This document shows positions 41,088 to 64,000 of a stretch of 64,000 nucleotides of DNA, one piece after another. Under the pieces are notes generated by a model. That model made no database searches. It had not been told where the DNA came from and saw only the letters and a program-made list of their open reading frames with translations. The first letter of the stretch is position 1, and every line of letters starts with the position of its first letter. The DNA lies in contig CANJVR010000002.1 of NCBI GenBank assembly GCA_947478395.1, forward strand, positions 256,001-320,000, in the 5' to 3' direction. The stretch is from Opitutia bacterium. Its GTDB lineage: Bacteria > Verrucomicrobiota > Verrucomicrobiia > Opitutales > Opitutaceae. The position numbers and the translations under genes were made by a program.

Positions 41088-41706
41088 GCTGGATGCGGTG
41101 TTGAGTCGGGTTCGCGGGAATTTCCCGCGCCGTGCCGGCCCCACGATGATCCAAACGTGGTTCGATGGGACGGATGGCGACGATTTGGGCGCGAGCGCTC
41201 CACGATGATGTAGATGCGTCGCATTCCCAATCTAACCCCTGAAACGAGAGATCATAGTGCGTTTTATAATCGCGGTGAATTCAGCAGCACGGGTGGGCTG
41301 ATTACGAAAGAGCGTTTCGAGAGCGACGATGTTGCGACGCAAAAAGCCAGATTACGGCCAGCGTTGATACGTTGCCGTAATTCAGATTCTGGCATCACCC
41401 GCTTTCCGTAGTCGGAACGAGGTGACGGAGTACGAAACCGGAGAATCGCGACGCTCTGAGAAGGGAAGTAACCTCCAAGCGTCAGAAGATTTTGTGGGAT
41501 CAGGTCTCGGTTCCAAAGCAAAGTGGGGGCGCGGTCCAAAACCATAAGCCATGTCCACACCGATGGCGGGGTCAGAGCGGAGAGCGGGACCTCGCTCCAA
41601 CGCGAAGCGGAAGAAATTCGAGGACGAAAAAAGGGGCCAAGGCCCGCGTGTTCAGTCGTCTTTTGCGATTCACTGTCTTTTCCGTGGAAGCACAGCGGCG
41701 CCCAAT

Positions 41707-42126
41707 TCAGGGTTGGGCTAATTTCCTAGCTTTGGTCTTGGGAAGTTTATTTTGCGCCTGCTCGATGCAGTTCAAAATTCGCTTAACATCGCCCGCACTG
41801 AACCAATCCTGCCTGTTAAGTGCCAGGAACAATTTGAGATCCATCAAAGGGCCATCGCTTTCAATAATGTAGCACGGTAACCAGCGAAACTGTTTTTCGT
41901 GCCCGTTATTTTGCAGCTCCCAAACCGCCTTTAAAATGAGGCGACCCTTCAAAACGACGTAACAATGGTCATCGCTGGCTCGAACGACTATAGGAGAAAG
42001 GATGCCGTATTCTAAGATTTCCGCCATCAGAGGGGCCAGAGGCGCTGTGAACTGCCGTTCCGGGAACGACATCGACAGCGTAAGTTGAGCGGGTTTCAGA
42101 TGAACGAAGCGTCGATTTGCAGGCAT
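41707..42126 (-). CDS. Degenerate ParB/Srx N-terminal domain protein
   Basis: L.AEILEYGILSPIVVR....YVVLKGRLILKA...LPCYII follows the ParBc pattern (SI...G..QPI.V...Y.I..G.RR..A), but the RR residues are lost. Confidence 0.6.
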   Translation of the reverse strand: MPANRRFVHLKPAQLTLSMSFPERQFTAPLAPLMAEILEYGILSPIVVRASDDHCYVVLKGRLILKAVWELQNNGHEKQFRWLPCYIIESDGPLMDLKLFLALNRQDWFSAGDVKRILNCIEQAQNKLPKTKARKLAQP

Positions 42127-42131
42127 GGCCT

Positions 42132-42139
42132 AATTAAGG
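42132..42139 (-). promoter_or_regulatory. Island motif CCTTAATT, 5 nt before the ParB-like ATG
   Basis: Minus strand reads ggccgCCTTAATTaggccATG. Confidence 0.6.
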
Positions 42140-42242
42140 CGGCCCAAGCCTGGACATCTCCGCCCCCTGCTTAGCGTCAGTGATCTGATGCAGGACGGCC
42201 GGAAGATATTGATTACCGCCCCGTATTTAGGGGGTTTTTGGC

Positions 42243-44351
42243 CTAAGAGTCCTGGGGATCTTCCAGCGTATCATCTTTGCTTTGTTTGGTGAGGATAACT
42301 CGTTGATTTCGACTGCCAGGGGTCATTTGCAACGATGCCCCCTCCGGAGATTTTTTCGCGTAGGATGAAATCAAACGCTTAACTCGCAATTTGCCCTCGT
42401 TCAATTCGTGCTCGCTGAAGCGCTTCAAGGCTTCATTTGCGGATGTGGCCTGTAGCAAAACCGAAAGGGCTAATTCCTCGGAGGGAGAGAAAAATTTGTT
42501 TAAAATTGCTCGAACCTCGAGCGCGGCTTCTTCGAGTTGAGAGCTGGTGATCGGGTTTTCGGTATGCGTAGCCCAATCGAGGTCTATAGTTCTCGATTCG
42601 TCATCGCCTTCCTTGGTCACGGAGAGGCTTTGAGTTTGAGAAAAAAGCAGTAGATCTGCGACCTGCGCAGCAGAAAGAGAGTGTTTCCCGCTGCCTCCAT
42701 ACAGCAGATTATAGCGTTCGGCGATATCAACGTAGTAATTCGGGTCGGAACACAAAAGCTCACTTTCCGTTGAAAGATGATAAACTCGCGGTTGAGCAGT
42801 GGTAAGATCTGCGCTCAATTTTATAGCTTGGCGCTCTTGATGCGGCTTTCGCCGCAACTCCATGTTTATTCGATTGAAAGCGTAGGTGGAGAAATAATTA
42901 CCTGATGTGTAATTAAAACTTGCGATGGTCTTTAACATTTCCTCCTTCACCATTGAACTTACATTTTCTTTGTCGTGCGATGAGTAGGATGCGTTCTTGC
43001 TATAAAAACTTCCTGTGATCGCGCCACATAAGCCGCGATTATGCGAGTAGAGTATGTTAAGGAAACTGTGGATTTCCTCCGCTTTCTTCCCGAAATTATT
43101 GGAAAGAATACGAGCTTCCTCGATTGTTTTGCCGTTCAGGAAATTCAACGCATCATCACGCCTAAGGATCGCGGGCAAAGCGCGCACCCAGCCCACAAGT
43201 TTTAGCGCATTGATGTGTTTGAAGGCGAGGCCGCCGGCTTTGTTCTTTGCGGCTGTAATGCATCCCGCGAGGATCGCCGGGTCACGCGCGTGATTCTCCC
43301 GCGCAGAAACCTCTTTAAACGAATGAATTATGTGCGTTAAAGCCTGGTGAATCGCGCCGCATTCAGCGTGAGTAAACTCGAAGCGGCGGCCATCGGGAAG
43401 GCTCTCCGCTGCTTTTGACGTCGAAGTCTCTTTCGACCAAAACAGCATCGGAAACTCGGCCATGACGAGCTCGCCAAACAGAGATTCCTGCAATCGGCCA
43501 AAGTGCCGGTGGGTTTGATGGAGCAGTTCCGGCGTTATTTTTTTCAGAACATAATCATAAACGAAATCAGCGTTTTTTTGTTTTGATAATGGGACTGCTG
43601 TTACCAGATTCGAAGCGATAAAATTAGCGCGATCTTTGAGTTGTTCGCGCCCTTCGGCCTTTAAGGTCAGCTCACCAGAAAGACTAAAGAGTTGGCTCGT
43701 TTTGACTTCAGTTGAAGTTTCTTCGCGGCTCGGGTCTGGTATAATCTTGGTGAAGTCTTCAACTTTTTGTAAGATGGAATCCGAAAAATAAGAAACGACC
43801 CGAACTGAGTAATTCGCCGTGTTATCACGCTGCTTAGATTTGGACCAGTCGATAAATCTGACCGCTGTGTTGACGGATTGTAGGGGCTGGAAGATGGGCA
43901 GATGGTCCCACCAGGCCTCATTTTTTCTGCGAGATATCGCGCCGTACCAAAATAGCGCGAACGCGTGTAAGTCCCTGAGTGAGCCGGCGGTAAAATGTTC
44001 ACACAGGAATTGGGCGCCGTCTAAGATTGGTTTCGACGGGTCTGCTCTGTCAGAACTTAGCCTCTGGTTATATAATCTGATTAATTTATCGCGGGCCGAA
44101 TTGTAGCTCATTTTCCCGGACGCGCCCTCGCGAAATACCGGGACCCAAGATTTGGATGTTGCTGGTAAAGGCGCAAACCACGGAGCGAGGGGCCAGTTTA
44201 GTGCATGGGCGAGGATCTGCCAAGTGGGTGGTTGTTTGGCCAACTGCCACGCCTCCTCCTCAAGAATCCTTGAGATGTGGAGTAAATCACTAGACAGTAA
44301 ACGTTTGTCTGCGAATGAAAGCGGCTTTTTATCTGAGGTGATGCACGCCAT
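42243..44351 (-). CDS. Large, highly diverged sigma70-family-like protein
   Basis: HNRGLCGAI..MLKTIASFNYTSGNYFSTYAFNRINMELRR....RQAIKLS matches region 2. LSAAQVADLL..SQTQSLSVTKEGDDES matches region 3.2. EVRAILNKFFSPSEELAL matches region 4.1. Confidence 0.65.
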   Translation of the reverse strand: MACITSDKKPLSFADKRLLSSDLLHISRILEEEAWQLAKQPPTWQILAHALNWPLAPWFAPLPATSKSWVPVFREGASGKMSYNSARDKLIRLYNQRLSSDRADPSKPILDGAQFLCEHFTAGSLRDLHAFALFWYGAISRRKNEAWWDHLPIFQPLQSVNTAVRFIDWSKSKQRDNTANYSVRVVSYFSDSILQKVEDFTKIIPDPSREETSTEVKTSQLFSLSGELTLKAEGREQLKDRANFIASNLVTAVPLSKQKNADFVYDYVLKKITPELLHQTHRHFGRLQESLFGELVMAEFPMLFWSKETSTSKAAESLPDGRRFEFTHAECGAIHQALTHIIHSFKEVSARENHARDPAILAGCITAAKNKAGGLAFKHINALKLVGWVRALPAILRRDDALNFLNGKTIEEARILSNNFGKKAEEIHSFLNILYSHNRGLCGAITGSFYSKNASYSSHDKENVSSMVKEEMLKTIASFNYTSGNYFSTYAFNRINMELRRKPHQERQAIKLSADLTTAQPRVYHLSTESELLCSDPNYYVDIAERYNLLYGGSGKHSLSAAQVADLLLFSQTQSLSVTKEGDDESRTIDLDWATHTENPITSSQLEEAALEVRAILNKFFSPSEELALSVLLQATSANEALKRFSEHELNEGKLRVKRLISSYAKKSPEGASLQMTPGSRNQRVILTKQSKDDTLEDPQDS

Positions 44352-44357
44352 TTCGGT

Positions 44358-44363: not shown

Positions 44364-44389
44364 TGGCGCGAAACGTTCGCGATAAACTT

Positions 44390-44507: not shown

Positions 44508-46172
44508 ATGAAACTGGAATATACCAGCTCAGGCCTTGCAAAGTATTCAATCCTGCCGCCCAACAATCCGGAGCGGCGCGATTGGCTAATTTTTTCGGAA
44601 GCGTTACACCTCGATCAACCGGAAAAGCCAGCGGACGGTGCGACATCGGCCCAAGCGGCAGATCATATGCGCGCTCTCCTTTTCAAATGCCTAAAATCCA
44701 GGGAAAGCTTCGACGCGATTATCTTAAAATGTGCAGGCGGCGCTATTTCACGGCGAACCAACGAGGATACCGCGGCCAAACCCAAATTTACGGAAGTGAT
44801 GTCGTTCGTTAGGACGCGGCTTTGGAATTGCGACTTCGATGGCAGCAAAACCGTAAGTAGCGTCGGGCGCGGACACTCCTCGAACGATATCGTTTTATCG
44901 TGGAATCCGGAGGCGGGTGGTATTGGGCACTATATTGCGGTTAATGTCTCGAAGATCCTTAATCGCGATTGGAAAGCGGCGACGATGGAGCTATCAGACG
45001 CCCAGCAGCTTTCGGGGGATTTTCCGGAGCGAAAACAGGGCCATCTCGATTCAACGGGCAGAATTTCAGGACCGGCCGCGGCGCAGCCAGAGAATGATGC
45101 GCCAGATTACGTCGAGGGTGACTCGGTCCTAGAAAAAGCCCCGCAAAATTTTTCGGTCACAAGTAAGGGCCAGGCATCGGATGGGGAGAACGGCCTAGAG
45201 CGGCTGCAAGCCACCAGCTTAGAACAGAGCACTGAGAAAGACAAAATTCCTGGGATTCGGCCCCACGAAGGACCTCCAGTTACTGAGTTGAGGCGGGAGT
45301 TTGATACCGCGCTAATAGCTTCCCGGATTTCTACGCCCCAATCGGAAGTGTTACGCAGTCCTCAGCATCCCGATTTCAGGGTATTTGCTGCGGCGCTTAT
45401 TGAGGATGTGACAGAGCCTGAGCTCGACGAGCCCGGTAGAACAGCCCAGCTGCGCGATTTGGCCGGTAGGGTACTGGCCATGCACTGTGCTGATCTCGAT
45501 GATTACGAAGGGTCGCGGGAAGCCCTGCTTGAGTGGCGTCCTGCCGAGGTGCCTTTCGCGCGATATTTCCCCGAGGTATGCCTCCAAGTGGCTGACTCGC
45601 TCAACCGCGTCGAGGTGCAGAAGGTGCGCGATCAACCGCTGCAGCTTGAGTTCGCGGCTGAGTTTCTAATTATCGGTAGCGAGATAACCCGTCAGTCGAA
45701 AAATCTAAATCCTCGTCCTCAGGGGATGTCGGCAGACGAATGGGCTGAAATCACAGATAAGGCCAAAAACTGGTTGGAGCGTGAATGCACTTCGAGCGAG
45801 GAATTGTTGAGTGCAGATCGACCCGATTATATTGCGTTGTGCCACCTCACCGGCAGGCTGATTGATCGTAAGATTGAGCCAGAAGTTATGGGGGAAAGGC
45901 TCAGGACGATGTATAGGGAGTGGACGGACGATCGCTTTTATGCCGCTTGGAGTAGGGCTGATCCGGTATTCAGCGCGTCGCCTGCTTGGTCGGAAAACCG
46001 TGAAAGCATAAACGAAATGAATAAGAGCATGGAAACGTGGGAACCGCTGAAGGACGGTTTTGCCGGTGAAACCATGAAGCGCCACTTGCATCAGGCGCGG
46101 TTAGAAATTGAATCGAGGGAAGAGATTGCGCGCCATGCCCGAAACGAGCCAACGGGTAAATCTCGAGGCTAG
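44508..46172 (+). CDS. Hypothetical protein (554 aa), possible sigma region-2-like N-terminal part
   Basis: Long ORF with no long competing frame. EVMSFVRTRLW..LSWNPEAGGIGHYIAVNVSKILNRDWK is weakly sigma-2-like. Confidence 0.7.
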   Translation: MKLEYTSSGLAKYSILPPNNPERRDWLIFSEALHLDQPEKPADGATSAQAADHMRALLFKCLKSRESFDAIILKCAGGAISRRTNEDTAAKPKFTEVMSFVRTRLWNCDFDGSKTVSSVGRGHSSNDIVLSWNPEAGGIGHYIAVNVSKILNRDWKAATMELSDAQQLSGDFPERKQGHLDSTGRISGPAAAQPENDAPDYVEGDSVLEKAPQNFSVTSKGQASDGENGLERLQATSLEQSTEKDKIPGIRPHEGPPVTELRREFDTALIASRISTPQSEVLRSPQHPDFRVFAAALIEDVTEPELDEPGRTAQLRDLAGRVLAMHCADLDDYEGSREALLEWRPAEVPFARYFPEVCLQVADSLNRVEVQKVRDQPLQLEFAAEFLIIGSEITRQSKNLNPRPQGMSADEWAEITDKAKNWLERECTSSEELLSADRPDYIALCHLTGRLIDRKIEPEVMGERLRTMYREWTDDRFYAAWSRADPVFSASPAWSENRESINEMNKSMETWEPLKDGFAGETMKRHLHQARLEIESREEIARHARNEPTGKSRG

Positions 46173-46329
46173 GCTGGTGAAAGGAACCGGACATGTTGCT
46201 CTCAGGCCCACCAGCGTATGTTCCGTACCCCTTAAGTCCTGAAACGACTTATGCACAGACTTGTGGTTCGGCCCCGTTCTTGCACACAGTGCGCCTGCCA
46301 AGCTGCATAAAGCTAAGGATTTTCACCCA

Positions 46330-47256
46330 ATGAACGGTTTAGCCTTTGAGCATTATGTCGATCAACCTTGGTTGTTATTTCAACTGGGGCACACGGAACT
46401 GCTCCAAACGAAACTCAGGAACAGTGTCGAAGAAGCCATCGATGCGCGGCGCCAAATTGACGATCTTACGGTCGCCCGGTTGCGGTGGTATCCCTCACTT
46501 GTCGGAGGGTTGATTATGGAGGGACTCATCACAGCCCCAGATATCGAGCGAATCCTAAATAATCCGGTTTCCCGATTTTACGCCCTGGCCAGTCATTATG
46601 AAGCTTTGGCTCCAGTTCTAGAATCGAAGCTCCTGGTTGATCCTGAAGGGGTCGAACGTATGGTGCGGTGGTTACGGTACAAAAAATACAAACCCTTTCG
46701 CGATGAGCGGGAGTACATGGCTATGTTGGGTGACGATCCGAATCGTCAGTATCGACTCACGCCGCCGGCGGAAAGAATAAGTCCAGAGCAGGTCAAGGCT
46801 GAGGCGGAAAAAAGGAAGTATCAGTCCGCGGCCTGGGCTTACCTTTTTGTGAGTAGCAGCCAAGATCCGCTCCTGGATTCCTCGCTTCTTTCCGTGCTAA
46901 AAAGCAACGAGGAATATGCCTATTTGAGCGCCTATATCCTGCGCCGGAGAAATCTAGAAATGTCACGTTGGGTGGAGTTAGTTTCGGAAATCAGGAATCC
47001 TCGCTGGGCTTTCCATGTGATGCGCGACATTGAACCCGGCGGAGCTATGCCTATTGGCATCCGGTCCCGTTTGCTTCGTTGCGTGCATACGTCGCCCCCG
47101 TGGGCCGTCCAACTGTGGGTAAGTCGCGGTTGGCGCGGTGAGCACCTTGGGTTAGTTTCCTGCGAATGCGGTCTGCTTTCAGCCGGGCACGAATGCGAAA
47201 TTGAGCTCAGCGCGTGGTTGCGGTTAGCAAAATTAAACGCCGGCCGAAAATCCTAG
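46330..47256 (+). CDS. Hypothetical alpha-helical repeat protein
   Basis: Long ORF with recurring (D/N/S)P.WA(Y/F)-like units: DPNRQY, SAAWAY, NEEYAY, NPRWAF, SPPWAV. Confidence 0.65.
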   Translation: MNGLAFEHYVDQPWLLFQLGHTELLQTKLRNSVEEAIDARRQIDDLTVARLRWYPSLVGGLIMEGLITAPDIERILNNPVSRFYALASHYEALAPVLESKLLVDPEGVERMVRWLRYKKYKPFRDEREYMAMLGDDPNRQYRLTPPAERISPEQVKAEAEKRKYQSAAWAYLFVSSSQDPLLDSSLLSVLKSNEEYAYLSAYILRRRNLEMSRWVELVSEIRNPRWAFHVMRDIEPGGAMPIGIRSRLLRCVHTSPPWAVQLWVSRGWRGEHLGLVSCECGLLSAGHECEIELSAWLRLAKLNAGRKS

Positions 47257-47392: not shown

Positions 47393-48175
47393 ATGATGTT
47401 CCGACCCAAAATAATATTGGCTCGAGGACTTCCGGGCTCTGGTAGGACCAATGCGATCAACGATTTGCGGAAATATTACCCCGGGATGGTTTATGTTGAT
47501 GCTGATCCTCCGGAACAAGGGGAGGACTTCTCGGATCCTGAAAAGCACGAACAAGCCCTAAGCCAAGCTACTGCGGATATTGAGCTGTTTGTGGAGCACG
47601 GCATCAAGGTCATCGCCGTTGAAACCTCGACGCCATCAAGCCAGAATGTGCGAAAACTGATTTCCCCGGCGCTGGCTGCAAATTACGCGCTAGAAATCAC
47701 GGATTTTGCCATAAACGAGCCTTTCGAGGTGATGAGCTATGTTAGGAATAGCAGCCACAAGCCAGATCCAGGATTTCTTTATGGCCTCGTGGCTAAGTGG
47801 GAAGAGTTTGATTTGGCGGTAAGCACTCCGACCAGAGAAAACGAGAGAGCACGGGAAAGACTCAGAAGAAAGGAAGCGTGGTCGGTATATGCTCAAGCTT
47901 TAGCTGCGGTTACGGAAGATGAGGCTAGAGTTTTACTGAAGCGTGTTTTTGACGAATACCCTGACGAAGCTGAGGCTTTGATGCTGATTGCGGGTCCCCA
48001 GTGGGGGCGTTTGAATTTAATTACCGAGCCTCCTGCATTCCCATGGGCGCGAGTCAGTCCCTATTGGAAAGACGTGGAAAACGAGTCGGCCGGGATTGTT
48101 TCAGACAAAGGATATGGCCGGCCTAAAAAGCCGCGTCCAACTCAAGTTTCGCCGGAGCAGAGGCAGGAGCTTTGA
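47393..48175 (+). CDS. P-loop kinase-like protein (AAA_33 / PNK-like)
   Basis: IILARGLPGSGRT Walker A-like motif with K replaced by R, followed by VIAVETS and a later H..W lid-like segment. Confidence 0.6.
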   Translation: MMFRPKIILARGLPGSGRTNAINDLRKYYPGMVYVDADPPEQGEDFSDPEKHEQALSQATADIELFVEHGIKVIAVETSTPSSQNVRKLISPALAANYALEITDFAINEPFEVMSYVRNSSHKPDPGFLYGLVAKWEEFDLAVSTPTRENERARERLRRKEAWSVYAQALAAVTEDEARVLLKRVFDEYPDEAEALMLIAGPQWGRLNLITEPPAFPWARVSPYWKDVENESAGIVSDKGYGRPKKPRPTQVSPEQRQEL

Positions 48176-48238: not shown

Positions 48239-48607
48239 TCAAACGTAGCGAAACTCAATCCGCGCCATAATAGAATCTAAGGTGGCCGCTTTGTGCCGCG
48301 CGAAAATTTGAGCCACTCGGGCTGACGGCGAAATGATACTCGAGATACCCTCGAGTCGTAGTTCGCGCTGACCGTACTCAATATCGTCGATAATCGCGCG
48401 TAATGGCTCGGGTTTCACTGATATAACTTCCAGCGTGCCCAACAAGGGGACTTTAATTGGGCAAATAAGCATCCAATCAGAGGACACGGCCTCGATTATG
48501 GTACCTGGATTGATGGGGAGATATTTGCTGCCAAAGCGGCGCGTCACCGTTTGCTGACGTTCTCGGATGGCGTGAGCAGTTTCTGAAAACACTAAACGCA
48601 TCGTCAT
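48239..48607 (-). CDS. ASCH/PUA-domain-like protein
   Basis: F......I....QTVTRR....I.PG..., V..EPL..I, R.EG and RIEFRYV, the pattern of small phage/ICE ASCH proteins. Confidence 0.7.
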   Translation of the reverse strand: MTMRLVFSETAHAIRERQQTVTRRFGSKYLPINPGTIIEAVSSDWMLICPIKVPLLGTLEVISVKPEPLRAIIDDIEYGQRELRLEGISSIISPSARVAQIFARHKAATLDSIMARIEFRYV

Positions 48608-55520: not shown

Positions 55521-56236
55521 CCTTTGTTTACAATAATGGTAGCCGTCGATGGAGTAACGGTCTGCCACCAAGTCCAATTAGATTCGATGGTGGTGCGTAC
55601 ATAGGTTTTAAATATGTAGGTGCCCGCGGCTGATGGACTAAAAGTATAATCAATATTGCCGGGACCGTACCCCGCCACTATAGTTTGAGCCCCACTAGGA
55701 TCTGTCATGTCGATCCGATTTTGGACCAGGAAATCAACTCCCGTATCCAAGGAATAAAGGCCGTGAACAACCGTAGATTGTCCTAGGTTGAGCACCGAGG
55801 TATCAGATCTCACCCAAGCCTTAACAGGGTTTGCTACTTTAACCGTAAAAGACGTCGTGGAATTGAACCACCCGAACCCGGCTTCCAAGCCACAATAATA
55901 GTAAGTGTAGGTCTGGGGAATGCCTGGTGCTTGCCAGGTGAACGTCCCGCTCCGGCTGGCCCCTAGGCCTACGCCATTGGCCGAGATTGAGGACTTTGCA
56001 TTGAAGGAACCGTCGCGAACCATCGCATAGTGATTCGAGTCAAAAGGTTTGGAGCCATTGTTGGTGAAAGTGGCATCGGCCGTAAAGTAGGTATCGGGAT
56101 AAACGGGGCCATGCACTGTAAACGAAGTGTAGGCGATTGAGTTCTCTTGTATCGGAGGGATTGATTTAAGTTCAGTTTTCGTCCCTATAACGATAAATAC
56201 GACTACAAGCGCCAAATAATTAAAAATGCTCTTCAT
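52556..56236 (-). CDS. Large secreted repeat adhesin-like protein (~1226 aa) with C-terminal ASH-like domain
   Basis: Hydrophobic N-terminus, tandem beta-rich repeats, and terminal DFG..TFTLSNTG..TITFNATAPGTR.GTLSI..L.LTG.G. Confidence 0.85.
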   Translation of the reverse strand: MKSIFNYLALVVVFIVIGTKTELKSIPPIQENSIAYTSFTVHGPVYPDTYFTADATFTNNGSKPFDSNHYAMVRDGSFNAKSSISANGVGLGASRSGTFTWQAPGIPQTYTYYYCGLEAGFGWFNSTTSFTVKVANPVKAWVRSDTSVLNLGQSTVVHGLYSLDTGVDFLVQNRIDMTDPSGAQTIVAGYGPGNIDYTFSPSAAGTYIFKTYVRTTIESNWTWWQTVTPSTATIIVNKGSTNVTISPTARTITAGQSITFTASGAQTGYVWGGTSGATGTGATKTVTFPTTGSFTVTVKDPGNSDWNASADATANITVTTGATPATFSVTPTTFTYNGAAQGPTITPSPAATTYTTTGTASATNAGSYSVTATANGNYTGSSGAVAWTIAKANQGVVSITSSSTSTLGNSYTATASGGNGSGAIVWALGTGSTAAGAAINASTGVVSASSIGTVVFKCYRAADSNYNQSATTANFTLTISSQPTVSFTVSPTTFTYTGAAQGPTITPSPAGATYSTSGTATATNAGSYSVTATANGSYTGSSGAVAWTIGKGTQSVLISPTAPSVTVGGSITFNASGGQNSYIWAGSAGAAGAGATTTVSFTTIGTFTVTVQDPGGANWNASNVATATITVLPVTATFSISPLSFVYSGSTQGPTITPSPAGATYSISGTATATNVGSYSVTATANGIYSGTSGAVAWTIAKANQGAVSITSNTTSTLGNSYTATASGGSGSGAIVWALGPGSTAAGAAINASTGVVTALSVGTVVFNCYRAADGNYNQSATTANFTLTVIPIATWYTVSPTTFTYNGAAQGPTITPSPAATTYLTSGTATATNVGSYSVTATANGNYTGTSGAVAWTITKANQGAVSITSSSTSTVGNSYTATASGGNGSGAIVWALGTGSTAAGAAINASTGVVSASSVGTVVFKCYRAADSNYNQSATTANFTLTVIPIATSFTFSPTTFTYNGAAQGPTITPSPAGATFTTSGTTSAINVGNFSVTANATGLYSGSSSVSWSIVQAIPTVILAPSDQTVVQGTSLTFTPSGGQNNYSWSGTAGASGIGATRTITFSSLGAFTVSAQSSAGGNYAASNVATSTITVVPPALLSVYGVTDFGTIRVNTGSPLTSTQTFTLSNTGGISMSVTGASTNGDFSITSINAGGVTYPVTIGAGSSVTLTITFNATAPGTRPGTLSIINTSTNNPTFNLVLTGLGVEGILVPSWSAIRNL

Positions 56237-56585
56237 AATTACCCGGTTATTGCGCCGGTAAGACGCGAGAAACATTTACGCCGGAGCCACATTTTTTTGG
56301 CGCCACTGCGGACACCAACGCAGCGTGAGTTTTCTGCCGGTCTGGAATCCCGAAGGAGGCAGCGCCTGCCGGCACGCTTCGCTCGGCGATCGGTCGGCAC
56401 AGTGCGATTTCCATTCCCCAAGTATGGGGGGGGCAGCCGGCTCAAACGTCGCTAGTACTCCCCAAGGGGCGACGCGCTTGCATGCCGCACCGCGCGGTCC
56501 CGACTCCATTTCTGGGGTCAAAGGGTGAAAACCCATCCGCCTCGGTGAAAGACGGCGGGCTCGCTCCTGAAATTCTACTTTTGAC

Positions 56586-57104
56586 TTACGGCTTCGTAGC
56601 CACCGGAGCGGCCGTTTTGGACGGTCCAACTTTCTCGAGCGCTTTTTGGATTTTATCGCCCACCTCTTTGGCCCCTAGATCTGATTCTAAGGCCTTTTTG
56701 CGCAAGACTTCCAATTCGGCCTGTAATACCTGCATCTCTTTAACGTGGACCATGATTTTGTCGTTCAGGATTTTGATTTCCGGCTGGTTACGCAGGTAGG
56801 TCTGGTATTCGACATATTTTTTGAACTCTTCGACCGTCACAACACCCTCGAGGTACTTCGGAAGCGGCGCCTCTTGAATTGGGGCCGCGGGGGCAGGGGC
56901 TGAAGAGCCAAGTTTAGGGGCCAACTTACCGGCGGGAGCTTGCGGTGCAATCGCCGCCGGCATCGGCTGCTTACTCATCGATGATGCTGGGGCGATATTG
57001 GCTTGGGCGATCACCGGAATTTGAAAAGCACAGGCGAAATTTGGCGCTAACAGGAAGCTGGCCAAAATGCTGATCCTGATTGAGCGAGATTTTAGCATTT
57101 CCAT
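56586..57104 (-). CDS. Secreted hypothetical protein with Pro/Ala linker and coiled coil
   Basis: Signal peptide (ACA-F), PA-rich linker and a helical C-terminus. Co-oriented within the pilus cluster. Confidence 0.7.
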   Translation of the reverse strand: MEMLKSRSIRISILASFLLAPNFACAFQIPVIAQANIAPASSMSKQPMPAAIAPQAPAGKLAPKLGSSAPAPAAPIQEAPLPKYLEGVVTVEEFKKYVEYQTYLRNQPEIKILNDKIMVHVKEMQVLQAELEVLRKKALESDLGAKEVGDKIQKALEKVGPSKTAAPVATKP

Positions 57105-57153: not shown

Positions 57154-58482
57154 TTATTTGGCCCCTCCCTTGAGCGCATCAAGGAGTAGGGTAAATGTCG
57201 GCAGAAACACCGCCATAACGAGTGCGCCTATAATAACGGTCGCAAGGACTGTGACCAACGGGCCGAGCAGCTTTGGCAGGGCATCTAATTTGGCGTCGGC
57301 GGTTTCCTTCAAAATGGTGGCCGTTACACTCAAAGACTCGGAAATCTGGCCAGTCACGCTGGCGGATTCCATGCGCGCCGCAATATCAGCTCCTTCGGGA
57401 CCGATCCGATGACGTTCCGACATGAAAGCCGAAAAGGGCTTTCTGCCTTTGAGCAGCTGTTTTAAAACTTCATGAAAAAAATCGCTGTATTCGTAATGAC
57501 CGGAAACTTTAGCGGCTAGTTTGTAGCAACGCTCAAGGGGAACAGCCTCGGCGTTAAGCAGGGCCAAAGCGTCAAGCGCACGCGCCATGATGATCAGCCG
57601 GTAGGCCGTACCGACCACTGGAACGCGAACAGAGAAACGCTGGAACCATTTGGCGGCAAAAATAGCTCTCCAGCCAAAAAATATCGTTATAAAACTCCCA
57701 ATGGGAATCGCCCAGATGACGGGATAATTGCGAATAAAGTTCGAGACGCCGACCACGATTTGCGTGGGAAGGGGGAGGACGCTGCCGTTGAGCCGAATGG
57801 CTTTGAAATTATCCTCTAAAGTCGGGAAGACGAAGAAATGCAGGATCGTCATCGCCGCGAAAACGAAAAACAGCGTCACGCCGGGGGTCACGAGCGCTGA
57901 GAGGAATTTGCTAGTCAAACTGCGTGACGAAGCGGAGCGCACGGCAAGCCGCGCAAAAATCACGGCTTGCTGGCCGGAAGTTTCACCCGCTCGCACGAGG
58001 GCGACCGCGACCTCATCAAAAGCGGACGGAAATTGCTCCATGGCCTCGCCCAATTTTTGGCCATGCTGCTCTAGCAGATAGCGTAATCCGGACATGACGC
58101 CGCGGAAGTACGGCGATTTGCAAAGCGGCGTAACGAGCTTGAGCGACTGCGCGGGCGGTAGGCCTGCGCGCAGGCAGCGCTCCATTTCAGAAAAAAACGA
58201 TTCAAGTTCTGGGCCTGATACGCGTTTTGACGTCGTGGCCCGAGTGAGGCTCGCGCTAGCCGCGTCAAACGGATGCGGCGTCACAACCTCATCGGCCGCG
58301 GCACCGGTGCTTGAGGCGGCGTACTGAGGGAAAGGGGCCAAAACGATGACGACTCGCTCCGTATTGCGGTAGCGGACGCGAAAGCGCATGGCCTTCCAGG
58401 TCGAAGGCGGGCCTGCGCGTGGCACCCGCGAAGCCACGGCCTGCGTTTGCACCGTTGGCGCACCGAGTGGATCTGATGTCAT
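57154..58482 (-). CDS. pilC: Type II secretion system F / PilC platform protein
   Basis: AGLP..QSL, FP..FD....LVRAGETSG, LPLPTQI, two T2SSF halves and AVFLP.F. Confidence 0.85.
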   Translation of the reverse strand: MTSDPLGAPTVQTQAVASRVPRAGPPSTWKAMRFRVRYRNTERVVIVLAPFPQYAASSTGAAADEVVTPHPFDAASASLTRATTSKRVSGPELESFFSEMERCLRAGLPPAQSLKLVTPLCKSPYFRGVMSGLRYLLEQHGQKLGEAMEQFPSAFDEVAVALVRAGETSGQQAVIFARLAVRSASSRSLTSKFLSALVTPGVTLFFVFAAMTILHFFVFPTLEDNFKAIRLNGSVLPLPTQIVVGVSNFIRNYPVIWAIPIGSFITIFFGWRAIFAAKWFQRFSVRVPVVGTAYRLIIMARALDALALLNAEAVPLERCYKLAAKVSGHYEYSDFFHEVLKQLLKGRKPFSAFMSERHRIGPEGADIAARMESASVTGQISESLSVTATILKETADAKLDALPKLLGPLVTVLATVIIGALVMAVFLPTFTLLLDALKGGAK

Positions 58483-58504: not shown

Positions 58505-60628
58505 TCAATCCCAGCCGCTGGTGAGTCGGGCCGCTTCCGTGATGCTGATTATGCCGGCTGCCGCTTTGACTAACGTGTGGTAGGAGAGCGGCCGAAATCC
58601 CTCCTGTTTGCAGATATCCTGGATTTCAGATTCGCTGGCCTTCTGGATAACAGCCCGACGTAGCCGGCGGTTAAATTTAACAATTTCAAAAATCGGCAGT
58701 AAGCCCCGAATCCCGTTATGGCACTGCGGGCAGCCGTCGTGATTGGGTTCGAATATTGAGGTGGGCGCAGTTATTTCGGCGCGGGCAAAAATTGCTTTGT
58801 CCTGATCGTCCGGCGTGCGGTGAATTTTACAGTTTGGGCACAGCCGTGGGACGAGGCGTTGCGCGATCAGCGTCAGAAGCGAACCGTCAAGCTCGTGAGC
58901 CGGAATCCCCATCCCGAGCAGTCGAGCGATGGTCTCGACCGCGCCATTGGTGTGAAGGGTTGAAAAAACCAAGTGGCCGGTTCGAGCCGCTTCAATGGCC
59001 GTCGTGGCGGTTTCGAGGTCGCGAATTTCACCGACTAGAATGACATCCGGATCTTGCCGCAAAAACACTTTCAAGGCTCTCGCAAAGGGAACGTGTTTGG
59101 TGACGGAGATTTGTTGGACTCCATCGATGGTGTATTCGACCGGGTCTTCGATGGTAATAATTTTTTGCGGTTCCTTATTGGAGGGATCCAAACCTCCGGT
59201 CGCAAGGTGCTTGAGCATCGCGTTGAGCGTGGTCGTTTTGCCCGAGCCCGTCGGGCCCGTAACTAAAACGATGCCGTCCGGTTTGCCCATGGTCGCCAGC
59301 AGGATCTGCAATTCCTCCTTTTCCAGCATCAGATCGTTGAGGGATTTTACGCCTCCGTCTTTGGGCAAGAAACGTAAGACCGCAAAACCTTGCCCAGAAA
59401 TAGCGGCGTCGCCGGCCGGTAGAATACTGACTCGAACATCGAAGTACTTATCGTCGAGGCGGAGCGTGAATTTGCCGTCGACCGGTTGGAGGTCTCCCCC
59501 GTTGGCATCGATGTACACGCGCAGCAACTGGATCAGAGCGGCCAGGCGATCCAGCTTGAACCGGCCGGAATCGAGGTAACGCATGGTGCCGTGCTGACGA
59601 ATGCGCATGCTGCCCATTCCAGCCGACGAATCGATGTGCAAGTCGGAGGCCCCTGCAGCGATTGCGCGTAGGCACGCCAACTGGAGCAGCGTCGTGTCGC
59701 TGATGTTTTGGGCGTCGATGCGAATTTTGGCCAAGTCCTTTTGCTTGATCGTCATCTTGGCGACCACCGCAACTGCCGCCTGGATCACGCCACGATTAAC
59801 CGTGGTTGGGACGATCGCCTGCTTTGCTGCGCGCTTCGTGATGACCGAGCGCGCGCTGGCCGGGCACAAAATCAACGCGAGGCGCGCGTTGGCCGCGGTC
59901 CCGGTGCGGACGGTTTTCCAAGCGCTTTGGATAGATTTGGGCTGGGAGCCGTAAGCGGTATTAGGCCCAGCGGCGTAGAGGGTTTCCCCCTCAAAGACTA
60001 TGGGGATGAGTTGGTGTTCGGTCGCAAAGCTTTCCGGCATCAGCTCGGCAACACCGGGCGGAACCGAGAACGATGTCAGGTCGAGCAACGGGCAATCGTG
60101 TTGGATCGACAGGATCGCCTCACGCCAGCCCGCCGGGAGAGCTTCGAGTAATTGAGTAGGTTCGGTAACGCCCGAACCCAAGATGGCTTCAATGGCCAGC
60201 TGATCAGCTTTAGCTCCGGGAAAACGGGCTAGCGTCTGCACTAGCTGCCGCGTGCCCTCGATTCCGTGCTTTTCATTTGGTAGACGGATTTGAGCGGAAT
60301 CAAATTCGTACTCTTGGACATCGGGCGAACAAAGCCGATCCGCGGTAAGCACGCTAAGAACCTTATGCGATTCTAACGAGATACGGGTGAGGCCGAACGC
60401 CCAGAGAGGAAACTTAGGCGGTGCCGCGCTTTCGGGACTGGGATGTCCGAGCACGACCATGGGGCCAACGCGTCCTACCGGCACCCACATGTTGTCGGCT
60501 GGCGTTTGATCCATGTACGCCAGGCTCCAAGCGCAATACATGGCGAGCGCTTCGACCGGCGGCTGCGTCAACTCAATCGGGCAAGGCGCAATACGGGCTT
60601 TCAGGTCTTCGGTGATAGCAATCGGCAT
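58505..60628 (-). CDS. pilB: GspE/PilB-family assembly ATPase
   Basis: ASDLHI, GPTGSGKTTT, IEDPVEY, LRQDPDVILVGEIRD, GHLVFSTLHTN, AQRLV and the tetracysteine CPNC..CPQC. Confidence 0.9.
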   Translation of the reverse strand: MPIAITEDLKARIAPCPIELTQPPVEALAMYCAWSLAYMDQTPADNMWVPVGRVGPMVVLGHPSPESAAPPKFPLWAFGLTRISLESHKVLSVLTADRLCSPDVQEYEFDSAQIRLPNEKHGIEGTRQLVQTLARFPGAKADQLAIEAILGSGVTEPTQLLEALPAGWREAILSIQHDCPLLDLTSFSVPPGVAELMPESFATEHQLIPIVFEGETLYAAGPNTAYGSQPKSIQSAWKTVRTGTAANARLALILCPASARSVITKRAAKQAIVPTTVNRGVIQAAVAVVAKMTIKQKDLAKIRIDAQNISDTTLLQLACLRAIAAGASDLHIDSSAGMGSMRIRQHGTMRYLDSGRFKLDRLAALIQLLRVYIDANGGDLQPVDGKFTLRLDDKYFDVRVSILPAGDAAISGQGFAVLRFLPKDGGVKSLNDLMLEKEELQILLATMGKPDGIVLVTGPTGSGKTTTLNAMLKHLATGGLDPSNKEPQKIITIEDPVEYTIDGVQQISVTKHVPFARALKVFLRQDPDVILVGEIRDLETATTAIEAARTGHLVFSTLHTNGAVETIARLLGMGIPAHELDGSLLTLIAQRLVPRLCPNCKIHRTPDDQDKAIFARAEITAPTSIFEPNHDGCPQCHNGIRGLLPIFEIVKFNRRLRRAVIQKASESEIQDICKQEGFRPLSYHTLVKAAAGIISITEAARLTSGWD

Positions 60629-60650: not shown

Positions 60651-61178
60651 TCAGCGCTGCATGAACTCCAGCAGAATCACCGGTACATTTAGGGGAGGGT
60701 GATCGGGGTCTAGAATATGCTTAACCGAAAGTTGCAGCGCTTGCGCAGTGACGCTGGTCAGGATGACGATATGATCGGCGACAAGCGGAATACCGGTGCG
60801 AGATTTTGCGGTGAATTGCTGGAGCTTCTGTCCCTCCCGATAGATATTCCCTCCCAAAATAATAGTGCCGGCGCAAATCGGCGTTGAGGGTATAACGCCG
60901 GTCAAACCCATTTCGGTGAATTTTGCCAACACGGCTGATACATTAGGCCCGGATGGTTTGACCTGAGCAGCTGCCTGATCAGCGCGGGCTTCCGGTTTTT
61001 TGAAGGGGCTAATGTCGGTACTTTCCAATTTAGAAACCTGACGATAACTCGGGGTGCGCAAAAATGGATCAGCTGCCGCGGTTTGAATAGGCGCGCTCGG
61101 GGGAGTTGACGTGGCAGAAAAACCCAAGGGAACGCACGCCACTGAGACCGAAATCAAAACAAGCATTCGAGTTTTCAC
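60651..61178 (-). CDS. Putative PilP/GspC-like protein
   Basis: Signal peptide, SPF motif, and LTGVI...IILGGNIYREGQ beta domain. Position after the PilO-like gene. Confidence 0.5.
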   Translation of the reverse strand: MKTRMLVLISVSVACVPLGFSATSTPPSAPIQTAAADPFLRTPSYRQVSKLESTDISPFKKPEARADQAAAQVKPSGPNVSAVLAKFTEMGLTGVIPSTPICAGTIILGGNIYREGQKLQQFTAKSRTGIPLVADHIVILTSVTAQALQLSVKHILDPDHPPLNVPVILLEFMQR

Positions 61179-61738
61179 GGTGAAGAAAGAGATTTTCCGT
61201 CCGTTAAAAACGTGGGGTATGAAATTTTGAGGGCGAGCTGGAGCGACTGACCTTTTTGCTCCAAAGCAATTTGCTCAAAACGGGATAGGGGCCAGGCGCG
61301 TTCCATTTCTCCGAGCCAATTCATCAAGCGGTAATATTCGCTCGAGACCCCGGTGGCTTCGGCGAATCGGACCCGCTGGGGCTTGCCGCGCCAACTGTAG
61401 TCCGAGATTCCTGACTTTCGATTTTGGACTGAAATGGTAGATTCCGTGCCGAGACGAGTTAGATCGGTCAGCATGGCGGTCTCGTCGCGTTCAGCCCCGA
61501 GGGCTGAGTTCCAGGCGGCGATGAAGGTGTTGGCGGGCGAGGACGCCTTTTTCATGCTGTCCAGCGTAAGACTTTTGATTTTGAGGGAGTTCTCGATGGC
61601 GACCGCTTTCTCCTTGTTTTGATCGAGCGACGCGGTGGCGAGGGTTAAACTTTTGTGACTCTTAAACACCGCGAACGCGAAAATACAGACGACGCAAAGC
61701 AAGATGACCGAGGGCAATAAATAGCGGTTCGATTCCAT
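61175..61738 (-). CDS. Putative PilO/GspM-like protein
   Basis: N-terminal TM, coiled coil, and Y..LMNWLGEMER..PL.R...I.L ferredoxin-like tail. Confidence 0.6.
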   Translation of the reverse strand: MESNRYLLPSVILLCVVCIFAFAVFKSHKSLTLATASLDQNKEKAVAIENSLKIKSLTLDSMKKASSPANTFIAAWNSALGAERDETAMLTDLTRLGTESTISVQNRKSGISDYSWRGKPQRVRFAEATGVSSEYYRLMNWLGEMERAWPLSRFEQIALEQKGQSLQLALKISYPTFLTDGKSLSSP

Positions 61739-61739
61739 T

Positions 61740-62333
61740 TTAGTTTAATTTTTCCCGTTTCAGCAGGGAGAAGTCCCCATTGCGGGGCAGGGCGACAATG
61801 GCGGAGAATTTCCAGCCCTCAGGGGAAGGGGAGTCGGTGTCGATCGTTGCCGTGCGAAAGCCAGCGAGATCGAGTGCGGACTGAATTTTAGCTATCTGGC
61901 GCGTGGCGGATTCTTGCTTAGAGGTCGTCAGCTCGACGGTAATTTTTGCGTTGGGCTGGGCCTGCTCCATCTCGATCGCTAGCCGAGAAAACGTCACGTT
62001 GGGTTCGAGTTGCTGCGTGATTAAAATAACTAGGGCTTGAGCCGGCGGGGTGATACTGAGCCAGTCGGACAAATCGCCGGCTTTGGCTCGGAGTTGCGCA
62101 ATACTATCGGCCTCTTTTTCGATCGCGCTTAGCTTCGATTCGTCCAACAAAAATTGCTTGGCTAGGATTTCGGATTCGGCCGTGACGCGAACCCCTTTTA
62201 GCACGGTGGTCCCGATGTAGATCGAAAAAGCAAGGATGGTCACATAAAACAGGACGATAGCGTTACTCAGCGCTGGCTTAAGCGGCCTTGGCAGCTCAGG
62301 CGGATTTATTTGGAGATCGTGCGCTAAAGTCAT
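61740..62333 (-). CDS. Putative PilN-like protein
   Basis: IN.P, TM helix, coiled coil, I...L.PNVTFSRL.I, and ..FS.... Position between the PilM-like and PilO-like genes. Confidence 0.55.
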   Translation of the reverse strand: MTLAHDLQINPPELPRPLKPALSNAIVLFYVTILAFSIYIGTTVLKGVRVTAESEILAKQFLLDESKLSAIEKEADSIAQLRAKAGDLSDWLSITPPAQALVILITQQLEPNVTFSRLAIEMEQAQPNAKITVELTTSKQESATRQIAKIQSALDLAGFRTATIDTDSPSPEGWKFSAIVALPRNGDFSLLKREKLN

Positions 62334-62337
62334 AATA

Positions 62338-63240
62338 TTAATTGAGCACCGTTGAGTGAAACGCGAGGTGCGGGGTTTGCTTCATCACATCGAATTTGCG
62401 CGTTTCAGGGATGTCCCCGATCAAGTTGGAAAAATCCGCCATGCCCCCGTCGACGTAGGCGAGGCGACCGGATTCCCCGGGGGGCAGGGCATCGGCAATC
62501 GCCGTGGCAATCGCGCTGGCAGTGCTTTCATCGACGCTCGGATCGTACAGGATGGAGTGCCATCCCTCGTGATCAACGCGCAGAAACATATAGCTGCTTG
62601 GAAGCGTAATGAGCAGCGCGCGCACGTCTTTGGCGGCGGATAAACCTGATGCGTAAGCCAATTGAAGCATTTGGGCTTGTTCGCTCACGATTCTGACCAG
62701 ATGGAGGCCGGCGACATTGCAGATCTCAGCGATCTGATTGATTTCGGCCGCGCGGATTTTAAAGCGGGCGCTCGAATTACTCGACTCAGGGTGATGCACC
62801 AAAGCGTTTACGTCGTCGGTAATTTTATCATCCGGGAACAGAATCATCGGCTCGGTTCGCATCACTTTCATGGTTTCGACGTCGGCCAATATGCTAACCG
62901 AGGATAGAGCGGTTACGCTAAAACCATAGCCCAAGCCTACGGCGATATAGGTCGTATTATGTTTCGCGGCATAGGCACGGAGCGAATCGTTGAACTTATC
63001 GCGATCGGATAACGAAAAAAGCTGCTCATCGAAGAAAGACGGCCGGCCTTCTGCATCAAAAACGGCCAGAACCACCCTCCAGCTGTTTTTCGAGACGGAA
63101 GCCACCATGATTCGATTTTTACCGAGTTTGAAAAATCCCAAAAGCTTTCGCTCCATGAACCGACTGGAAATCGTTGATTCGATATCCAAGGGATCGGGTC
63201 GAAACCCGGAGAAGGAAAGTAGCGCCGTGAGTGGGTTCAC
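62338..63240 (-). CDS. Putative PilM/GspL-like cytoplasmic protein (GTG start)
   Basis: Soluble 300-aa protein with I.....AGL....I..E..., LLI......F and YVDGG, consistent with an actin-like PilM fold. Upstream of the pilN/O-like genes. Confidence 0.5.
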   Translation of the reverse strand: MNPLTALLSFSGFRPDPLDIESTISSRFMERKLLGFFKLGKNRIMVASVSKNSWRVVLAVFDAEGRPSFFDEQLFSLSDRDKFNDSLRAYAAKHNTTYIAVGLGYGFSVTALSSVSILADVETMKVMRTEPMILFPDDKITDDVNALVHHPESSNSSARFKIRAAEINQIAEICNVAGLHLVRIVSEQAQMLQLAYASGLSAAKDVRALLITLPSSYMFLRVDHEGWHSILYDPSVDESTASAIATAIADALPPGESGRLAYVDGGMADFSNLIGDIPETRKFDVMKQTPHLAFHSTVLN

Positions 63241-63245
63241 GACTC

Positions 63246-63253
63246 AATTAAGG
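63246..63253 (-). promoter_or_regulatory. Island motif CCTTAATT, 5 nt before the PilM-like GTG
   Basis: Minus strand reads ccgccCCTTAATTgagtcGTG. Confidence 0.6.
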
Positions 63254-63271
63254 GGCGGCCGACTGAACAGA

Positions 63272-64000
63272 TTACAGCATTCCTGCAGCGATCCGCTTCA
63301 GCCTGGATTGTTCGAACAATTGCATGCCTTCGTTCGTCCCAACCTCAATGTCCTGCTTAAGGTGACCATAACGCCCGCCTCGGATTTTTGAGCTTATGGA
63401 CTGGTTCCAGGTCAATATCTCGTGGATCGGCACGACGGCCCGACGCTGATTAGCGGGATAAAGGAGTTGTTGCGCGACGCATATGCTCAGAGCCATGGCT
63501 AATGCGCCGGCTCCGCTTGAGCCAATTTCGGCGACCAGATCGCCCATGCGTTGCATGGCGCTCCCCACATCTTGTCCATGGATGGTGGAGACCACTTTAA
63601 CCCCCGTTAACGAAGCTTCCAGGGCGACTTCTGCTTCGTCCGAGTCCCGGATTTCACCCACCATGATGATGTCAGCGTGCATGCGTAGAGCCCGCTTCAG
63701 CGCTGAGGCAAACGTGGCGGTATGGGGGCCAACGGAAATCGAGGTGAAGCTGCTGCCGTTAGGTAAATCTTGGAACTCGAACTCGACCGGATCCTCGATG
63801 GTAACGACTCGAACTGGCCGGCGTTTCGCGTTTTCAACTAGAAGTGAAGCGATCGAGGTGGATTTTCCGTTGCCGGTTGATCCCGCGAACAGGACTAGAC
63901 CCGATTTGAGCTGCACGAATCGGTCCACCAAATCTGGAGGTAATAATAGATCCTCTGGCTTGGGTGCGACCCGAGGCAAAACTCGAAGGGTAAATTCTTC
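63272..64000 (-). CDS. pilT: PilT/PilU-family retraction ATPase, 5' end beyond the window
   Basis: Frame is open to 64000. GLVLFAGSTGNGKSTS, TIEDPVEF, ALRMHADIIMVGEIRD, STIH and GMQ.FEQS motifs, with no tetracysteine motif. Confidence 0.8.
   Translation of the reverse strand, partial: EEFTLRVLPRVAPKPEDLLLPPDLVDRFVQLKSGLVLFAGSTGNGKSTSIASLLVENAKRRPVRVVTIEDPVEFEFQDLPNGSSFTSISVGPHTATFASALKRALRMHADIIMVGEIRDSDEAEVALEASLTGVKVVSTIHGQDVGSAMQRMGDLVAEIGSSGAGALAMALSICVAQQLLYPANQRRAVVPIHEILTWNQSISSKIRGGRYGHLKQDIEVGTNEGMQLFEQSRLKRIAAGML

Follow-up and report, generated by a model that had tools for sequence, protein, structure and literature searches.

A low-GC island beside a dif-like site in an Opitutia bacterium carries a divergent type IVa-like pilus operon, a sigma-like gene and a gene for its predicted partner

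The window analysed here is a stretch of 64,000 nucleotides from an Opitutia bacterium (G000:C2:256001-320000), whose genome of 3.31 Mb in 9 contigs is 98.8% complete; the runs that covered the locus best were freshwater and lake metagenomes. It contains part (41100..64000) of an island of about 33 kb (G000:C2:297100-329966) which carries a pilus operon and a sigma-like gene. The island starts at 41.1 kb of the window, its left edge being approximate, and ends 10 kb beyond the window end; positions past that end are given in the numbering of locus L001, in which L001:14009-14156 corresponds to G000:C2:330009-330156. It lies at the replication end of the chromosome, bounded on the left by lepB, the gene of a host signal peptidase (39786..41087, plus strand; PF10502; GC content at third codon positions (GC3) at the 37th percentile), and on the right by a single dif-like site. 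After lepB the GC content drops from about 0.60 to 0.49-0.60, mostly below 0.57, and it recovers near C2:330 kb. As a whole the 33-kb stretch has a GC content of 0.539, compared with a mean of 0.615 (standard deviation 0.010, minimum 0.548) for the 987 other 33-kb windows. None of the 27 island genes has a GC3 above the 5.9th percentile of 2279 other genes; the five flanking genes examined fall between the 26th and the 90th. In the relative G003, lepB is followed by the dif-like motif and then by the hydrolase gene that forms the right flank of the island in G000, that is, by an empty site. Because of its composition and the empty site in this relative, the 33-kb block is foreign and horizontally acquired.

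The pilus genes are all on the minus strand, in the order two major pilins, a minor pilin, PilW-like, PilX-like, a CHB/Fn3 protein, PilT, PilM, PilN, PilO, PilP-like, PilB, PilC, a 172-aa protein, two adhesin-like proteins, a secretin and a 122-aa open reading frame (ORF). The six pilin-type and pilus-accessory genes (L001:4351-9113) lie to the right of pilT, past position 64000. The tandem major pilin genes among them (L001:8121-9113) are a duplication and 88% identical; three pilins gave N_methyl matches above the cut-off and have a short class III leader. PilN, PilO, PilP, PilW and PilX are named from place, size and N-terminal pattern, and the NCBIfam equivalog scores of the pilus genes were all below cut-off. 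The PilT-like ATPase of 358 aa (L001:3272-4348; 63272..64000 in the window, its start lying 348 bases past the window end) scored 181 bits with TIGR01420 (cut-off 319). A profile of it built from 11 rows found a solved PilT in the PDB with an E value of 2e-69, DotB with 2e-46 and PilB-type ATPases with 6e-38 or weaker. Among the PilT motifs, the protein retains Walker A, the Asp box, Walker B and the second His; its first His and its AIRNLIRE motif deviate from the usual form. The structure model of the next protein (300 aa, 62338..63240; predicted local distance difference test score, pLDDT, 75) has a PilM/EpsL fold, Foldseek pairing it with EpsL (E 2.8e-11) and PilM (E 6e-11) at a template modelling score of about 0.5. 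The PilP-, PilO- and PilN-like genes (60651..62333) were assigned by position and size, and their order is conserved in the family; none had a match in the Pfam or NCBIfam libraries, and a PilO profile found no PilO structure in the PDB.

The remaining genes of the operon lie wholly within the window. The extension ATPase PilB (58505..60628) had TIGR02538 as its best model (331 bits, cut-off 676), the PilB model outscoring GspE, and it contains a tetracysteine motif (CPNC/CPQC). The platform protein PilC (57154..58482) matched PF00482 and, in NCBIfam, had GspF as its top model. It is followed by the 172-aa protein (56586..57104), which has a signal-peptide-like N-terminus and a counterpart in the same place in G031. 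Next come a 1239-aa adhesin-like protein (52556..56275) with five MBG stretches and Ig-like matches, which has a homologue in each of the G146 and G244 elements described below, and a 584-aa adhesin-like protein (50789..52543) with domain matches to MBG, InlB B-repeat and Ig-like families. The secretin (48620..50701; PF00263, E 2.7e-32) scored 135 bits with GspD and 95 with PilQ. The 122-aa ORF (48239..48607) had no match in Pfam, NCBIfam, PHROG or PADLOC. The only prepilin peptidase of the genome is a host A24 gene at C3:94989; the island has none.

Taken together, the core type IVa features that were tested are present, namely PilB, PilT, PilC with a secretin, a PilM fold and short-leader pilins with a host peptidase; the exception is PilN, PilO and PilP, which no profile recognises. 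A type IVa-like working of the island pilus is thus well supported as far as sequence features go, and the operon is likely to be a complete single-locus set for a retractable pilus. The host's own systems are elsewhere: pilB-pilT-pilB-pilC and pilM-to-secretin loci at C1:214-221 kb and C2:653-665 kb and loci of the type II secretion system (T2SS) type on C4, all read from ORF starts and BLAST matches. Because of the empty site, the separate clades of its proteins and these core systems elsewhere, the operon is not the host's vertically inherited pilus locus. A reading of the window made from its sequence alone, hereafter the sequence-only reading, had proposed an AT-rich shift after lepB, a co-oriented order from pilT to the secretin with a secreted protein and two adhesins between pilC and the secretin, a tetracysteine PilB and a foreign type IVa-like pilus with PilT, all of which agree with the composition data and the genes just described. 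Its PilMNOP-like genes stand for PilM, by fold, while PilN, PilO and PilP rest on position and size; its ASCH label for the ORF beside the secretin found no match in Pfam, NCBIfam or PHROG.

The trees place the pilus proteins in a lineage of their own. The island PilT clusters with 11 members from the family (support 98/97) and the host PilT falls with canonical PilT, so that the copies are separate. The ATPase tree comprised 39 rows, a motif filter having removed one G146 ATPase and several of the family's PilB rows; the island PilT formed its own clade, and the placement of the long branches, those of TraJ, the type IVb ATPase and the ATPase of the G031 type IV secretion system (T4SS), was uncertain, also relative to this clade in the case of TraJ. 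Sixteen family secretins formed a group that excludes the three secretins of the host (FastTree support 1.00). The PilT, PilB and secretin sequences represent a long-branch, divergent Opitutaceae lineage. Matches to a PilMN profile were found in 21 of 401 family genomes (a count containing two weak and three strong matches taken without inspection) and in 11 of 63 genera, with none in the 17 relatives of the same genus. A pattern scan of all genome contigs found 12 loci, all in Opitutaceae or Verrucomicrobiae. The gene order is conserved across the family loci and a PilT-like gene is present in nearly all loci inspected. The closest operons are those of G031 (43-63% identity) and G344 (32-54%), which form one clade with the island by secretin (1.00); the G344 cassette carries no adhesin genes. 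In a distant branch of the lineage (L033, L035, L043-L045, L111) PilM and PilN are fused, and several operons there have their own prepilin peptidase gene, unlike the G000 island.

At the left side of the island a 702-aa protein is encoded on the minus strand (42243..44351) that resembles sigma-70 factors. It is read as an N-terminal extension of 270 residues, region 1.2, an insertion, region 2, a region-3-like part and a remodelled C-terminus. Its structure model is weak (pLDDT 62). In Foldseek 48 of 50 rows were RNA polymerase or sigma entries, none with an E value below 0.001, and in VIA 15 of the top 17 rows were sigma entries, most of them spanning model residues 271-506 with Z scores of 6.3-8.4. 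On this model we read residues 271-506 as region 1.2, insertion and region 2. PF04542 matched the G031 homologue with an E value of 3.8e-4; region 4 gave no profile match, and the sigma profile, like those of PilMN and PilO, found nothing significant among PDB sequences. Assignment to the sigma-70 family is therefore weakly but consistently supported by sequence and model, and the sigma-like gene named by the sequence-only reading belongs with the pilus. The family is very small, with 10 representatives at E <1e-30 and 15 in all among 1.84 billion proteins. The gene shows a dN of 0.19 and a dS of about 3.4, near saturation, which points to purifying selection. Among the genomes that the sigma search covered, a part of the 400-genome sample, it was present in 2 of 301 family genomes (G000 and G031), in 1 of 18 genus genomes and in 1 of 5 further genomes (G344).

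The second protein of interest is a 264-aa orphan (L001:12030-12824, plus strand) without a family match in the library scans and without a usable ESM Atlas match. In a model of the complex it docks on residues 600-688 of the sigma-like protein with a score of 0.89, the best of three controls reaching 0.00. Of 157 solved pairs 116 attain the 0.89 mark, as do 2 of 215 mismatched pairs; these counts apply here only approximately, because our own alignments were used. The runs share at least 69% of their contacts and give the partner a pLDDT of at least 72; contact is closest between sigma residues 642-649 and partner residues 120-131, both conserved. The model supports binding of the 264-aa protein to the C-terminus of the sigma-like protein. 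The 264-aa gene occurs in 4 of 401 genomes, that is, in G000, G031 and G344 and as a partial copy in G009. In G344 it forms, together with the pilus operon and the sigma gene, a block of 18.5 kb with a GC content of about 0.51 in flanks of 0.65, at another site; no integrase, tRNA, transfer gene or dif-like match was seen at this cassette. In G031 one contig carries the sigma and 264-aa genes next to a T4SS cluster, and the site of the G031 pilus operon likewise has no dif-like match. The pilus sub-clade, the sigma-like gene and the 264-aa gene thus co-occur in all three genomes that have the sub-clade. For neither the sigma-like protein nor its partner did the libraries searched contain a described family, and the two are the novel part of the finding.

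Several relatives tie the pilus lineage to conjugation. In G368 a single contig carries genes for the secretin, PilO, PilN, PilM, PilT, pilins and PilC, among which VirB4 and VirB5-like genes are interspersed. A VirB4-like gene lies 6 kb upstream of the pilins in G079, which G127 resembles by eye, and a VirB10-like gene lies 4 kb upstream in G095. Close VirB4 homologues (E <1e-70) were present in 12 of 401 genomes, and all five genera that have them fall among the 10 pilus-bearing genera, a coincidence whose significance Fisher tests overstate, as kin are not independent. Homologues of three island genes, those for the 331-aa, 554-aa and 1239-aa proteins, were found in two conjugative elements. 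One of these, in G146 (G146:C16:91000-185000; L102, L082-L084, L103, L104), is about 90 kb long and carries two integrases, a coupling protein, a weak relaxase match, a T4SS, ArdC, RadC and two sigma genes; the other is the matching element of G244 (G244:C23:74000-163000). Both elements look complete, share an identical host site and have two sigma-70 genes, two PilB-type ATPases, pilin and secretin genes and modules of the CBASS type.

Two further observations concern T4SS regions in the family. A separate PilB-like ATPase clade (100/99) is found inside the T4SS regions of three elements (L054:6368-8026, L095:5950-7626, L103:4251-5831) and adjoins a relaxase-like gene in G146. In G163, G384, G405, G292, G128, G211 and G189 (L086, L097, L098, L099, L091, L092-L093 and L096) a block of VirB4, VirB5-like and VirB6-like genes lies amid housekeeping genes with VirB8-10 absent nearby, followed in two cases by a pilC-like gene and a pilin. 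This block may be what is left of a conjugation system after domestication, and so may resemble DNA-import systems. A literature search at the abstract level, covering few subscription titles and no supplements, found no paper on the pilus lineage, on Opitutaceae conjugative elements or on the sigma family.

The left part of the island contains four further genes. A 139-aa ORF (41707..42126, minus strand) matched the ParB N-terminal family PF02195 with an E value of 5.5e-4, below the cut-off. A 554-aa orphan (44508..46172, plus strand) is divergently paired with the sigma gene, a pairing that recurs in L038; its N-terminal part is homologous to sequences in the two conjugative elements (E 8e-13 and 6e-11), and it gave no usable ESM Atlas match (scores of 0.84 or less) and no protein match in five genomes. 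It is followed by a 331-aa orphan (46261..47256, plus strand) with homologues of 26-30% identity in the two elements and by a 260-aa P-loop protein (47393..48175, plus strand) that weakly matched phrog_2071 (E 6.4e-5). A DNA search for the left cargo in G031 found nothing. The ParB-like and kinase-like labels of the sequence-only reading thus keep a weak profile match and a P-loop, respectively; its phage-like cargo is not supported, as all four viral-contig scans were empty and the relatives sit in conjugative elements. A phage origin was further tried with PHROG, which gave three weak, non-virion matches for 11 orphan ORFs, and no replication or phage genes were found in the island. A defence system was likewise dismissed after PADLOC gave no match for eight orphan or regulatory ORFs. 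Because homologues of the 331-, 554- and 1239-aa proteins are found in conjugative elements, the left cargo is of conjugative-element and not of phage type.

Behind the pilin genes there are an HDOD gene (L001:10716-11600, plus strand), the 264-aa gene and two genes for receiver domains (L001:12994-13960, plus strand). The stand-alone receiver genes are a tandem duplication (90% identical) and, together with the HDOD gene, may feed signals into the pilus.

The dif-like site (28 bases, L001:13967-13994) follows directly. The motif has what we take to be the 28-base layout of dif; it is present as a single copy in G000 and was detected in 12 of 18 genus genomes, and a control with the reversed pattern found none. 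The distance to the maximum of GC skew on C2 is 10-20 kb, and the identity of the site as dif is based on the layout, the single copy and the skew. Such a position relative to GC skew is reported for dif sites in PMC3025954. The lepB neighbourhood, to which the sequence-only reading had pointed, was seen in 13 genus relatives, including the empty site of G003, and showed no island genes within 200-1500 bases. In three of them a conserved motif of 24 bases lies no more than about 100 bases from lepB, and one carries half of this motif; gene order is different in six, and in three the contig ends within 206 bases. The host encodes two XerC/D-like genes. Within the island no second dif-like site was found: the best other score was 9.1 bits, compared with a background best of 9.5, in a scan that did detect the half site of G031, and a dif-looking stretch near L001:10238 did not score. 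With no second site above background, Xer-mediated entry is possible only.

Other inserts at such sites were also observed. In G031 the slot between a half site and an intact dif-like site is occupied by a prophage-like insert of 13.7 kb with a P2-type coat gene (L114:4800-18600; G031:C4:469808-483636), a candidate for a Xer-integrating tailless phage. In G007 a half dif-like site lies behind lepB. In G004 a second dif-like site (L147; G004:C15:45100-45123) differs from the first by two mismatches and may mark another Xer-type insert. Directly behind the dif-like site of G000 there is an orphan CRISPR remnant (L001:14009-14156) of two 37-base repeats and a partial third, in a region where strains vary; its spacer had no match in the rest of the G000 genome. 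A contig of X11 goes on here into a sequence that, by its motif, resembles the beginning of cas3, adjoining the glyoxalase gene.

The sequence-only reading had further suggested an undescribed integrative and conjugative element (ICE), phage-plasmid or island, and had named genes by which it might be recognised downstream. Pilins are indeed present there, past position 64000, while a prepilin peptidase, T4SS, relaxase, integrase and att repeat were not found in the island. Four PF00589 integrase matches occur genome-wide, none in the island, and no Pfam recombinase match was obtained in the scanned island ORFs. No PF03432 (MobA/VirD2) relaxase match was found in G000, other relaxase families not being searched singly, and the G146 relaxase and coupling protein and a primase of related elements, used as queries, had no match either. 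The same was true of VirB4/5/6/8/9/10-like queries from G031 and related elements. Self-BLAST found no repeat linking the island ends, and the nearest tRNA is 8 kb away. As no genes for transfer or integration and no att repeat were found, the island is not an intact ICE or phage; tested as an ICE, as one of the integrative mobile elements that make use of Xer (IMEX) and as a prophage, it failed in each case, and it is not self-mobile. Population data agree with this. Contigs from all four runs (four studies) cover two stretches including flanks, in 28-30 and 25-30 of 30 bins, respectively, and island depth is similar to flank depth in all four. In X9, the pieces listed diverged by 0.3-1.7% within the island, compared with 0.3-1.5% within its flanks. 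A contig of 3055 bases from X5, possibly the source run, crosses the left junction without a difference, and no join or loose end suggesting excision was seen among the contig ends shown, contigs being prone to drop rare forms. The even coverage and depth therefore fit a fixed island and not a chimera or a replicating element.

The explanation that we favour, with a probability of roughly 0.6, is that a pilus module, associated with a T4SS and equipped with a transcription switch of its own, inserted beside dif, that it either lost its transfer genes or arrived without them, and that it was kept for attachment or cell contact. In other words, the island is likely to be the stranded remnant of a conjugative element. 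The two major pilins would make up a filament that PilB extends and PilT retracts through the secretin, the pilins would be cut by the single prepilin peptidase of the host, and the two Ig/MBG proteins would serve as surface or tip adhesins. This pilus may first have caught and held mating partners for a T4SS and may now provide host attachment or cell contact. The pilus genes are likely to be switched by the co-travelling sigma-like protein and its 264-aa partner. The partner would clamp the remodelled last domain of the sigma and either hold it off, as an anti-sigma factor, or replace the lost reader of the -35 element, as a co-activator. Domain 4 of sigma factors is bound by the anti-sigma factor FlgM and by AsiA of phage T4, and T4 gp55 acts with the co-activator gp33. 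More tentatively, at somewhat less than an even chance, these genes may be a portable pilus regulon, in which a new, very small sigma-70 family, its last domain serving as the docking site of a dedicated partner, travels with that partner between Opitutaceae genera accompanied by a single sub-clade of a retractile pilus that derives from conjugation, and stays intact after loss of the transfer genes. If true, this would mean that sigma and partner form a switch with a new architecture, and a mating pilus would clearly have been taken over by a host.

A number of observations weigh against this explanation. PilT and PilB are below the curated cut-offs, and the secretin scores higher with GspD than with PilQ. 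A close VirB4 is found in just 6 of the 20 other pilus-positive genomes. Many family loci lie among host genes at host GC, and the lineage is therefore often chromosomal. The closest full elements, those of G146 and G244, bear a pilus-like set of another kind. As to the switch, the C-terminal part of the single-chain sigma model has a pLDDT below 50 and the fold matches are middling. In G009 the partial 264-aa gene is accompanied by neither sigma nor pilus, the G031 pilus operon is on a different contig from the sigma and 264-aa genes, and a short search (up to 350 bases; 10-mers with one mismatch, 12-mers with two) found no promoter motif shared upstream of the pilin, sigma and partner genes of the three genomes.

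It might be thought that the island is a stand-alone adhesion cassette spread by recombination or transformation, with no conjugation history, the T4SS neighbours being passengers or coincidence. The terminus region is one that gathers foreign DNA, the G344 cassette is without a transfer gene, and most inspected family loci have no T4SS genes nearby; the T4SS linkage in G368, G079 and G095, the proximity of the sigma and partner genes to a T4SS in G031, the three island genes common to full conjugative elements and the confinement of close VirB4 to pilus-bearing genera, kin not being independent, make this unlikely. If the island were still mobile, using the host XerCD to integrate at dif and a helper element to move, this would fit the end of the island at the dif-like site, the other inserts that the slot between lepB and dif takes in G031 and, by its half site, G007, and the presence of two XerC/D-like genes in the host. 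The lack of a second dif-like site above background, the location of the G344 cassette and the G031 operon elsewhere and without a dif-like match, and the lack of an excision-type joint or loose end among those shown (contigs drop rare forms) speak against it, and we regard it as distinctly unlikely.

The genes might instead encode a T2SS-like machine that exports the two adhesins and builds no long pilus. The GspD score of the secretin, GspF as the best model of PilC, EpsL as the top fold of the PilM-like protein (tied with PilM) and the adhesin genes between pilC and the secretin would fit. According to PMC6668835, PilT was lost in T2SS, whereas a PilT-like gene is kept in nearly all inspected loci of this lineage; PilB scores higher with the PilB model than with GspE, the major pilins are in tandem, and the G344 cassette does without adhesin genes, so that such a machine seems very improbable. 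That the locus is the host's vertical pilus or an assembly chimera can hardly be credited. Although none of the contigs seen to cross the left junction comes with certainty from an independent study, the host's core pilus and T2SS loci are elsewhere, the island is in none of the 17 genus relatives, depth is alike in all four runs, and the X5 contig, if possibly from the source run, spans that junction. The reading of a T4SS-associated module stranded beside dif thus accounts best for the locus. It would place the lineage, tied to T4SS in some genomes and domesticated-looking in others, in a natural series of mating pili becoming host organs of adhesion or motility.

Compared with known systems, the island resembles IMEX in lying at a dif-like site without an integrase of its own; it differs from them in having no second dif-like site and no replication or phage genes, and its cassette relatives are away from dif. 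With the plasmid type IVb pili of TP114 and R64 it shares a single locus and adhesins, and its relatives adjoin conjugative T4SS. In contrast to those pili it is type IVa-like and has PilT, and it has no shufflon and, in G000, no T4SS; the IncI-type pilus ATPase is far from the island ATPases in the tree, and the single PilQ-type ATPase without PilT is not what the island shows. The plasmid type IVb pilus is required for mating in liquid, according to PMC9045228, and by analogy the island pilus is likely to have had the same original job as the TP114 and R64 pili, that of catching recipients in liquid. The statement of the sequence-only reading that mobile pilus loci generally lack PilT was too strong, as three annotated plasmids, pGSUB1 (NZ_CP010312.1), CP114559.1 and pMESIL02 (NC_014214.1), have PilT, a PilB-type ATPase, PilC and pilin-type genes in one plasmid locus, and in pGSUB1 and CP114559.1 the PilT cluster adjoins conjugation genes. 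These loci differ from the island in their canonical PilT grouping, in being plasmid-borne and in having no sigma gene in the stretches viewed.

The type IVa pilus, as described in PMC6668835, is matched by PilB, PilT, PilC, the PilM fold, the secretin, the short-leader pilins and the separate prepilin peptidase that the model permits. The island differs in its one locus, its long-branch parts below cut-off, its profile-invisible PilN/O/P and its own sigma-like gene. The same source describes type IVa pili as scattered core machines, almost always multi-locus and less mobile than single-locus systems, which are transferred more often; here a single-locus lineage moves between genera. The sigma-like protein resembles sigma-70 groups 1-3 in its match to region 1.2, insertion and region 2 and in having a small partner predicted on its last domain, and differs from them by its 270-residue extension, the lack of a region 4 profile match, its tiny family and its familyless partner. 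Taken by itself, the pilus is a new, divergent representative of a known type; what goes beyond this is the co-travelling sigma with its predicted partner.

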